Shown here one piece after another: positions 29,947 to 30,358 of a DNA stretch of 64,000 nt. A program made the position numbers and the translations under genes. This DNA comes from an uncultured Chloroflexia bacterium (lineage in GTDB: Bacteria > Chloroflexota > Chloroflexia > QHBQ01 > JADMIH01). The stretch spans positions 320,001-384,000 of the forward strand of contig CAWCNY010000006.1 of NCBI GenBank assembly GCA_963797095.1, read 5' to 3'. The notes beneath the pieces were generated by a model, which saw only the letters and a list, made by a program, of their open reading frames with translations, was not told the origin of the DNA and searched no databases. Position 1 is the stretch's first letter; every line of letters begins with the position of its first letter.

Positions 29947-30325
29947 GCGGCCTGGAAGAGTAGCCATCTCCCAGGCTGCGATTTTCGCCCATTTGCACAC
30001 ACCAACAGGTTTAAGGAAGGGTTCATTCTTGAGATCGTCGTGTTCTACGATTGAACTACCGGCCCATATGTGGCGGGCCAGAGGGGATTTGAACCCCTAT
30101 CCGACGGATTCCGACCCGATCCGCTAGATTTGGCGTTCGGCGAGGATGCTTATGCTGGAGTGATAACCTTATTCTGGGGTGGCGTTCACGCTGCCTCTGC
30201 CGATTGGGCTACCCCGGCGTGTTGTGGGTGCCGGGGGTAGGATTCGAACCTACACTGTGGTGGTCGCTGCCTTCAGTTTTAGCTTCAGTCTCATTTTGCT
30301 TCAGTCTCAGCTTTTGCACTCCACC
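29947..30325 (-). ncRNA. Long structured ncRNA with two circularly permuted tRNA-like modules (YrlA/Y-RNA-like topology)
   Basis: T-arm, loop-closed 7-bp acceptor, TA, D-arm at 30253-30193 and 30098-30042; long-range stems; own promoter. Confidence 0.85.
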
Positions 30326-30328
30326 TTT

Positions 30329-30358
30329 ATTATAGGCGAAGCCATGCTGCCAGGGCAA
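30329..30358 (-). promoter_or_regulatory. sigma70 promoter for the ncRNA
   Basis: TTGCCC-18-TATAAT immediately before GGTGGAGTGCAA. Confidence 0.75.

Follow-up and report, generated by a model that had tools for sequence, protein, structure and literature searches.

A stretch of 64,000 nt from an uncultured Chloroflexia bacterium (contig CAWCNY010000006.1; the whole stretch is called the window below) contains on its minus strand a gene for a structured non-coding RNA (ncRNA) of about 380 nt with two tandem tRNA-like heads. The element had been proposed from the letters of the window alone (the original prediction), and all sequence elements named there are present on the minus strand where it had placed them. 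Judged by covariation among its homologs, the element is a real, conserved structured ncRNA. The RNA and the gene of a PF25283 (DUF7873) protein co-occur almost perfectly across genomes, whether linked or not. In our best reading, which we consider probable, the RNA is a YrlA-like tRNA mimic that forms the RNA half of a mobile pair, with DUF7873 as its dedicated protein partner. The RNA gene has the following features.

30329-30358, minus strand: promoter, with a -35 box TTGCCC (30358-30353), an 18-nt spacer and a -10 box TATAAT (30334-30329).
29947-30325, minus strand: ncRNA of about 380 nt, its 5′ end inferred from the -10 box and its 3′ end from the terminator hairpin.
30273-30317 (plus-strand numbering of TRF; the RNA is on the minus strand): window-specific tandem duplication of period 16, with 2.6 copies of the conserved 5′ motif CUGAnACUGAAGC.
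30317-30323 with 30162-30156, minus strand: helix P1, 5′ strand TGGAGTG and partner CACTCCA, which closes the module-1 domain.
30193-30253, minus strand: tRNA-like head 1, consisting of a T-arm, a 7-bp acceptor closed by an 11-nt loop starting ACCC, UA and a D-arm.
30253-30237, minus strand: T-arm of head 1, GTAGG/TTCGAAT/CCTAC, read from the sequence.
30236-30230 with 30218-30212, minus strand: acceptor of head 1, CCCCGGC with GCCGGGG, the 11-nt loop between the strands and TA after them.
30209-30193, minus strand: D-arm of head 1, read from the sequence.
29985-30143, minus strand: module-2 domain, with an outer helix (30143-30129 with 30005-29985), a middle helix, CGTCG (30106-30102)/CGACG (30040-30036) and head 2.
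30134-30141, minus strand: GCCGAACG, a match to the YrlA-type motif GNCGAAN0-1G, in the 5′ strand of the helix enclosing head 2.
30042-30098, minus strand: tRNA-like head 2, consisting of a T-arm, a 7-bp acceptor closed by the 9-nt loop GCCACATAT, UA and a D-arm.
30098-30082, minus strand: T-arm of head 2, AGGGG/TTCAAAT/CCCCT, read from the sequence.
30081-30075 with 30065-30059, minus strand: acceptor of head 2, CTGGCCC with GGGCCGG, with the loop GCCACATAT (discriminator and CCA) and then TA.
30056-30042, minus strand: D-arm of head 2, read from the sequence.
29947-29979, minus strand: terminator-like hairpin, 10 of its 11 pairs compensatory.

Homologs were collected by BLAST against 40 related genomes and then by scanning contigs of public genomes and metagenomes for motifs. 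The three homologs that BLAST gave are 76-77% identical, and two come from another family; the motif scans added metagenome-assembled genomes of Chloroflexia and Anaerolineae as well as soil contigs. Among 17 metagenome pattern matches, L041, L052 and L053 were dropped as chance matches, L048, L051 and L054 were duplicates and L049 was a fragment. The final set consisted of 15 homologs and the window copy, and alignment A7 contained the 15 homologs without the window. On these homologs, 93.8% of cells paired under a hand-curated structure of 87 pairs in 15 helices, compared with 35-47% when the partners were slid by 1-3 columns. Changes on both sides were found at 48 of the 87 pairs, and none of 500 shuffles reached any of the observed measures. 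For the module-2 domain, 95.7% of cells paired in 22 sequences and 32 of 43 pairs were compensatory. The window RNA leaves 4 of 75 pairs unpaired (two of these are alignment gaps), which is within the range of the homologs. The fold of the single sequence is modestly better than that of shuffles (z = -2.31), and the structural support therefore comes from covariation and not from folding energy. A covariance model of the module-2 domain, R1 (168 positions, 43 pairs, 22 sequences), was used in the searches below. R1 scores 162.5 bits (E = 4.3e-36) on the window by construction, the window sequence being in its seed; a second head lies upstream of the match.

Each head corresponds to the upper half of a tRNA and comprises a T-stem of 5 bp, whose 7-nt loop is of the UUCRAnU type, a 7-bp acceptor, a UA linker (positions 8-9) and a D-arm. 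In head 1 the T-arm pairs in 100% and the acceptor in 96-98% of cases, with six of seven acceptor pairs compensatory and an invariant D-stem. In head 2 all five T-arm pairs are compensatory, and the acceptor pairs in 100%, again with six of seven pairs compensatory. Both permuted modules are thus found as predicted, with covarying pairs. The discriminator and CCA which had been noted inside the closing loop are present in module 2 of the window but are not invariant. After the 3′ strand of the module-1 acceptor, 34 of 35 heads have an A; CC comes next in 21 heads and CCA in 16. Module-2 heads carry NCC at this place in 25 and NCCA in 17 of 37 copies. The closing loops vary from 6 to 164 nt among copies, head 2 included. 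That of head 2 accommodates big inserts, since in two Chloroflexia genomes, G051 and G076 (loci L068 and L073), it holds an insertion of 141-164 nt of long GC-rich palindromes.

Long stems in place of the anticodon arm had also been proposed, and all four that were named (TGGAGTG/CACTCCA, CGTCG/CGACG, ACGCCAA/TTGGTGT and TCGCC/GGCGA) covary. The 5-bp CGACG/CGUCG helix of module 2 comes one base after the D-arm, where a tRNA has its anticodon stem. Exchanges of AA/UU to GC/GC and of G/C are seen in the outer helix of this module in L057 and L066-68. Compensatory variants of P1 include GGAGA/TCTCC, GGAGCA/TGCTCC and GAGCG/CGCTC; P1 pairs in 74-76% of cells in two alignments, a value partly depressed by misaligned 5′ ends. 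A second helix, P2, joins GCUGA within the duplicated 5′ region to UAAGC after P1 and therefore crosses P1. It pairs in 82-89% of cells, with GC/CG/AU exchanges. Compensatory changes in P1 and P2 were also seen in the Streptomyces and phage copies.

The whole element is located in a 485-nt gap on the minus strand between a remnant of the DUF7873 gene (ending at 30411) and a glyoxalase-family gene (starting at 29926). The predicted promoter, TTGCCC-18-TATAAT, is the sole sigma-70-like site in a consensus scan of 29850-30450; it matches 10 of 12 positions, and shuffles average 0.4 sites. Homologs show an aligned TTGC..-N17-TAnACT pattern upstream of their RNA. The hairpin that had been taken to close the RNA covaries in homologs as listed above. 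Its U tract is weak in the window, where a simple terminator scan did not call it, and homologs carry CTTTTTT. Promoter, both heads, helices and terminator are kept together in 15-25 homologs, which bears out the view of one promoter-driven unit with two tandem tRNA mimics. The extra copy of CUGAnACUGAAGC is missing from homologs, and the duplication is private to the window copy. The RNA is single-copy in its own genome (nhmmer, E = 6.6e-85, with a profile built without the window sequence).

Infernal scans with Rfam 15 gave no family at the gathering score on the window element or on 10 homologous loci. No full-length match to a known Rfam family was thus obtained, in agreement with the distinct ncRNA class that had been suggested. 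The topology of T-arm, closed acceptor-like stem and D-arm is that of YrlA (RF02553), as the original prediction had said, and it is found with covariation in both heads. The best YrlA matches of the entire genome are the two heads, with 24.6 bits for head 2 (model positions 27-81) and 19.6 bits for head 1 (model positions 30-81). Both are far below the cutoff of 69 bits and cover just the core of T-arm, acceptor and D-arm in a model of 114 positions; nowhere in the genome does a YrlA match exceed the cutoff. According to the accessible text of Chen et al. 2014 (PMC4201824), YrlA RNAs occur in bacteria and phages and have a helix closing the RNA in place of the anticodon arm, which is a further likeness, and GNCGAAN0-1G was proposed there as the Rsr site. 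This motif is matched 5′ of the tRNA-like domain by GCCGAACG (30141-30134), as also in other Chloroflexota copies and in Streptomyces. Most Chloroflexota copies keep GCCGAACG unchanged or have GUCGAACG in its place; L091, the Streptomyces copy whose alignment was viewed, reads GCCGAACA, with the last base changed. The GNCGAA motif is absent from the phage copies inspected. In contrast to YrlA, the RNA described here has two heads in about 380 nt and a conserved 5′ region.

The tRNA-like parts could also be seen as a remnant of tandem tRNAs or as a permuted or two-piece tmRNA-like RNA for ribosome rescue, but we find this scarcely credible. T-loops, D-arms, the UA linker and discriminator plus CCA are all present, and genes of two-piece tmRNA are likewise laid out in permuted order around a variable loop: T-arm, acceptor 3′ strand and CCA, variable segment, acceptor 5′ strand, with no anticodon arm. 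Tandem tRNAs may also imitate YrlA, a caution given in the same text (PMC4201824). However, ARAGORN found 0 tRNA and 0 tmRNA genes in the window. The tRNA model (RF00005) matched the T-arm only, at 14.4 bits against a cutoff of 29, with no cloverleaf, and the permuted tmRNA models (RF01851/RF04321; cyano_tmRNA and tmRNA_permuted) gave weak matches of 18.1 bits against 70 and 14.1 against 47. The 3′ strand of each acceptor pairs with the 5′ strand that follows it, and these pairs covary, which junctions between tandem tRNAs would not do. The anticodon arm is absent and neither acceptor has a G3:U70 pair, the alanine identity pair. A conserved frame is lacking both between the heads and after them; that of the window, GCC GAA CGC CAA AUC UAG, is open in homologs. 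A standard tmRNA with the tag GNKNYALAAA is present elsewhere in the genome, and the Gordonia phage Phendrix, which carries the pair, has its own tmRNA (89 bits). This reading is largely refuted; the RNA differs from two-piece tmRNA by the missing tag frame, the missing G3:U70, its true D-stems and its two heads.

A gene for a protein of about 245 residues directly precedes the RNA, on the same strand, in 14 of 17 loci. This neighbour belongs to PF25283 (DUF7873; E = 3.9e-121). The window carries the following part of it.

30411-30794, minus strand: DUF7873 remnant with residues 118-242 left of about 245; its identity to the intact protein of G011 is 78% (tblastn).

The N-terminal half and the promoter of the remnant are gone, and its PF25283 match is limited to model positions 120-243. 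It is directly upstream of the RNA and is the sole DUF7873 match in the genome, with no second copy. In the Chloroflexota loci aligned, DUF7873 is 75-82% identical, and the other flanking genes vary from locus to locus. The placement among damage and stress genes, to which the original prediction had given weight, is therefore incidental; the setting is not conserved and DUF7873 is the sole conserved neighbour. A weak DDE-transposase-like open reading frame (ORF; E = 1.4e-4, under the Pfam cutoff) is found 1.6 kb upstream of the truncated gene, by two adjacent DinB-family genes (window 32427-33419 and 34186-35263, minus strand), and it may be linked to the rearrangement that truncated DUF7873. 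In two metagenome loci (L038, L040), a protein of about 320 residues with a weak thymidine-kinase match (PF00265, E = 1.3e-7; phrog_592) is encoded between DUF7873 and the RNA.

DUF7873 is a large family, with 2412 clusters at 50% identity (E <= 1e-3) and more than 7,500 proteins at E <= 1e-10, all unnamed, from sources including Ktedonobacter, Roseiflexaceae and Anaerolineae. A first AlphaFold model was poor (pLDDT 68.9) and searches with it were uninformative. The model made from a 56-sequence alignment reached pLDDT 96.4 and pTM 0.77 and predicts two long N-terminal helices, a beta-hairpin and helix, a long twisted antiparallel sheet and C-terminal helices. A PDB profile search with DUF7873 gave a best E of 0.65, and scores in the ESM Atlas were 0.79, under the useful range. 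A Pur-alpha/Whirly-like identity was considered and rejected, the weak rows (probability 0.11-0.15) being no evidence. The name 'DUF7873' was found in no paper in our literature search. The published literature searched describes neither the RNA nor the pair; the YrlA survey in the accessible text of PMC4201824 (254 species and 22 phages) is restricted to 4 kb around Ro60, so an overlap with its list is unlikely though possible.

Co-occurrence was analyzed in relatives and in an even sample of Chloroflexota. In 41 relatives, full-length R1 matches (159-178 bits) were found in exactly the four genomes with DUF7873. In the sample, DUF7873 is present in 19 of 401 genomes, and in 10 of the 18 positives other than the window's genome the RNA is adjacent to it (nhmmer). 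Another gene follows DUF7873 in the remaining eight. Seven of these have the full-length RNA elsewhere (125-143 bits), among unrelated neighbours, and the eighth, G213, has a partial R1 match only (47 bits). Gene and RNA are therefore not an operon. Among DUF7873-negative sample genomes, no full-length R1 match was found in 65 genomes, which we chose from 382 (same families plus the TROVE-positive set) and searched under stricter Infernal filters; one gave a partial match of 43 bits. In total, 20 of the 21 DUF7873-positive Chloroflexota genomes other than that of the window have the full-length RNA, and none of the 102 DUF7873-negative genomes searched has it; related genomes in these counts are not independent. 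An exact-motif pattern, GAACGCCAAAT..GCAAATGGGCG, was tried as a measure of distribution and rejected: it matched 1 of 401 and 0 of 5 genomes, many of which have the RNA by nhmmer and R1. The pattern is not universal and its counts were therefore discarded. In one genus (g9; L060-L065), DUF7873 is followed by short GAACATAGAGCA-type repeats and then a conserved ORF, and the RNA is elsewhere in the genome.

These layouts speak to a cis-acting role, in which the element would be part of an mRNA, as a structured 3′ untranslated region of DUF7873 or as a tRNA-sensing leader of the downstream gene. It is true that most loci have DUF7873 directly ahead of the RNA on the same strand, and that the window hairpin ends 20 nt ahead of the glyoxalase start codon without a good U tract. 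A real T-box leader also exists elsewhere in the window (51500-51796, plus strand; 93.2 bits against a gathering score of 93, with an insertion of about 60 nt relative to the model). But a conserved promoter separates DUF7873 from the RNA, homologs terminate in a hairpin and U tract, and no T-box match was found at the RNA region. Downstream genes vary, and in seven genomes the RNA stands alone, far from DUF7873 and with unrelated neighbours. We regard a cis-acting role as very unlikely.

The pair extends beyond Chloroflexota. By tblastn, DUF7873 was found in 75 phage records (Vibrio 29, Gordonia 12, Rhizobium 12, Klebsiella 7, Serratia 6, Arthrobacter 3, and others, by host) and in four actinobacterial replicons. 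Eight phages chosen to span hosts and two Streptomyces replicons were examined. All ten records have an unannotated gap of 0.35-1.2 kb after the DUF7873 gene, with R1 matches inside. R1 scored 133.9 and 128.1 bits on the Streptomyces replicons, and on the phages 90.6 (Phendrix), 76.9 (Mimi), 57.9 (Keelan), 44.6 (Pam2), 39.0 (KpLz-2_45), 29.8 (RSL1), 28.9 (RHph_TM16) and 17.4 bits (D491). A second head was detected upstream in six of the eight phages. In Phendrix and in the Arthrobacter phage Mimi the pair lies mid-array among dozens of tRNA genes, and in Keelan, RHph_TM16 and D491 a tRNA gene comes after the pair. The pair is thus found in Chloroflexota, in Streptomyces and in phages of actinobacteria, cyanobacteria and proteobacteria. 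Rfam scans of the phage and Streptomyces loci gave only tRNAs, one tRNA-Sec-like match and an unannotated tmRNA, and nothing on the RNA itself. This tmRNA (RF00023) is that of Phendrix (MN096369.1, about 83523-84051; L083 3075-3603) and is located between tRNA-Asn and tRNA-Arg in the array. Keelan gene 126 (L090 3268-3513), a hypothetical ORF, overlaps the R1 matches 3265-3329 and 3373-3556 and was probably called in error on top of the RNA gene.

An improbable alternative is that the RNA is a bona fide YrlA-family Y RNA. Ro60/Rsr would bind GNCGAANG and the heads would tether or protect, as in the Rsr-Y RNA-PNPase machine of Deinococcus and Salmonella, with DUF7873 incidental or accessory. 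The shared module order, the YrlA-model matches at both heads and the position of GCCGAACG at the place expected for an Rsr motif, 5′ of head 2, all fit this view. So does the genome itself. The absence of Ro60 noted in the original prediction is true for the 64-kb window, but a genome-wide search for TROVE found one gene on another contig (C2; the RNA is on C6), within 1.5 kb of which no YrlA-like module was detected. TROVE is present in all four RNA-bearing relatives and in 19 of 41 relatives overall, a count that includes the unpublished genomes G021, G022 and G032; G016 gave just short T-arm matches. In the phylum sample TROVE was found in 15 of 401 genomes. Six of these have the RNA as well; they are all six genomes of genus g9, in a family (f7) where TROVE is universal. 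Since TROVE is common in the order and universal in f7, the co-occurrence is what lineage alone gives.

The other comparisons with TROVE go against a Y RNA of the YrlA family. No TROVE match was found in 11 of 21 genomes with the full-length RNA, ten of which are 90-99% complete (G296 is 79% complete), nor in any of the eight phage genomes and two Streptomyces replicons with the pair. Ro60 is therefore not an obligate partner. YrlA RNAs are expected within about 4 kb of TROVE on the same strand. Here the two are on different contigs, in G262 (genus g9) the RNA and rsr are 141 kb apart, and in none of the loci examined is the RNA adjacent to TROVE. The nearest case is contig C8 of G184, where the RNA (84834-84998, minus strand) and a TROVE match (80088-80291, plus strand) are about 4.5 kb apart on opposite strands, a proximity that counts in favour of the YrlA alternative. 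Relatives in which this RNA is absent have YrlA-like modules of their own beside rsr. In G005, G019, G021 and G025, two or three tandem permuted tRNA-like modules stand by TROVE within a few hundred bases (L081 1211-1709; L025 2774-3557; L027 2824-3077; L024 3532-3848, the last from the unpublished G021). They resemble the present RNA in this tandem arrangement and score 16-35 bits to R1, but match only its head part, without outer helix and 5′ region, and their genomes lack DUF7873 and this RNA; they are possibly multi-headed or tandem YrlA RNAs. The RNA described here, in contrast, is not beside rsr, is often found without TROVE and is tied to DUF7873. A facultative link with Ro60 may exist where genomes hold both TROVE and the RNA.

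We return to the probable reading of a YrlA-like mimic paired with DUF7873. The pair would be a mobile two-gene unit, in which the DUF7873 gene is followed by an independently promoted structured RNA of about 380 nt. This RNA folds into two domains, each presenting a tRNA head, with long helices that replace the anticodon arm and join the RNA. DUF7873 would most likely contact the highly conserved parts that are not tRNA-like, namely the 5′ region with CUGAnACUGAAGCU and, in the outer helix of module 2, the internal loop that includes GNCGAACG and GYGCAAAUGGGCG (the GNCGAACG/GCAAAUGGGCG loop). The two heads would be presented to the tRNA-handling machinery of the cell. By analogy with YrlA of M. 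smegmatis, RNase P together with 3′ trimming or CCA addition may open one or both loops. This opening is predicted because of the 7-bp acceptors, the conserved discriminator, the frequent CC(A) and the freely varying loops of 6-164 nt, and it would yield a nicked RNA of several pieces with tRNA-like CCA ends. According to the accessible text of PMC4201824, M. smegmatis YrlA is cleaved by RNase P and gains CCA in vivo, and it is the sole one of three tested YrlA RNAs with a 7-bp acceptor stem. It shares this closed acceptor with the present RNA, and YrlA and YrlB likewise put two RNAs with tRNA elements on one precursor. In the same text, however, these RNAs are bound by Rsr and encoded upstream of rsr, and YrlB has a possible T-arm only; for the RNA described here such processing is a prediction by analogy. 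The likeliest role would be that of a tRNA mimic which titrates, senses or recruits factors for the tRNA acceptor or elbow, a function useful to phages with their own tRNA sets.

Several points weigh against this reading. DUF7873 is a putative binder of the RNA. Foldseek with the better model gave nothing at E <= 0.001. The best VIA-align neighbour, 3kdq_A (Z 9.2, root-mean-square deviation 8.5 Å), is itself a protein of unknown function and uninformative, and Pfam, PADLOC and PHROG scans gave no family but DUF7873. Gene and RNA are unlinked in 8 of the 18 sample genomes, and the 65 negatives were our own selection. In the genome of the window, DUF7873 is truncated yet the RNA looks intact; the window RNA is either an orphan working alone or a recent relic after recent loss of DUF7873. 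About half of the heads lack CCA and some loops are just 6 nt long, so processing, if any, may not be universal. P1 and P2 cross, which implies a pseudoknot or else alternative structures. For the helices standing in for the anticodon arm in module 1 there is support in Chloroflexota but none in a cross-phylum alignment of nine sequences, where this stretch aligns poorly and they are 38-50% paired. No RNA run containing the window sequence was found.

A more specific version is put forward tentatively and seems to us doubtful. DUF7873 and the two-headed RNA would form a Ro60-independent ribonucleoprotein, a cousin of the Y RNA particles and an analogue of tmRNA-SmpB, with DUF7873 as the possible counterpart of SmpB, the dedicated small protein of tmRNA. 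It would be carried by phages with their tRNA sets and repeatedly captured by bacteria. RNase P and the enzyme that adds CCA would open both heads to give a three-piece RNA with two CCA ends, which would act on the tRNA economy in infection or stress. Such a particle might act as a decoy or sensor for host factors by which the acceptor ends or elbows of tRNAs are attacked or modified, or might deliver tRNA processing or repair.

Apart from these subjects, two Acido-Lenti-1 RNA matches were found in the window, at 17890-17935 (minus strand) and 18055-18100 (plus strand), scoring 49.7 and 49.9 bits where the cutoff is 37. About 120 nt separates the two matches, which face each other; the genome, being from Chloroflexia, is outside the phyla in the family name.

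Ro60 has until now been the protein linked with tRNA mimicry by Y-like RNAs, and the distribution of the two-headed RNA follows DUF7873 instead. The RNA is a large family outside Rfam, and the protein that it follows is very widespread and wholly uncharacterised. The annotation of the phages examined is corrected as well, since the 'empty' gaps of 0.35-1.2 kb after their DUF7873 genes hold the RNA gene. Tractable carriers exist, with DUF7873 in culturable Ktedonobacter and Streptomyces and the pair in Streptomyces and in phages of Gordonia terrae. Because the pair lies in or beside the tRNA arrays of phages whose hosts belong to at least four phyla, it offers a handle on the roles of tRNA-like domains in ncRNAs and of the accessories of phage tRNA sets.

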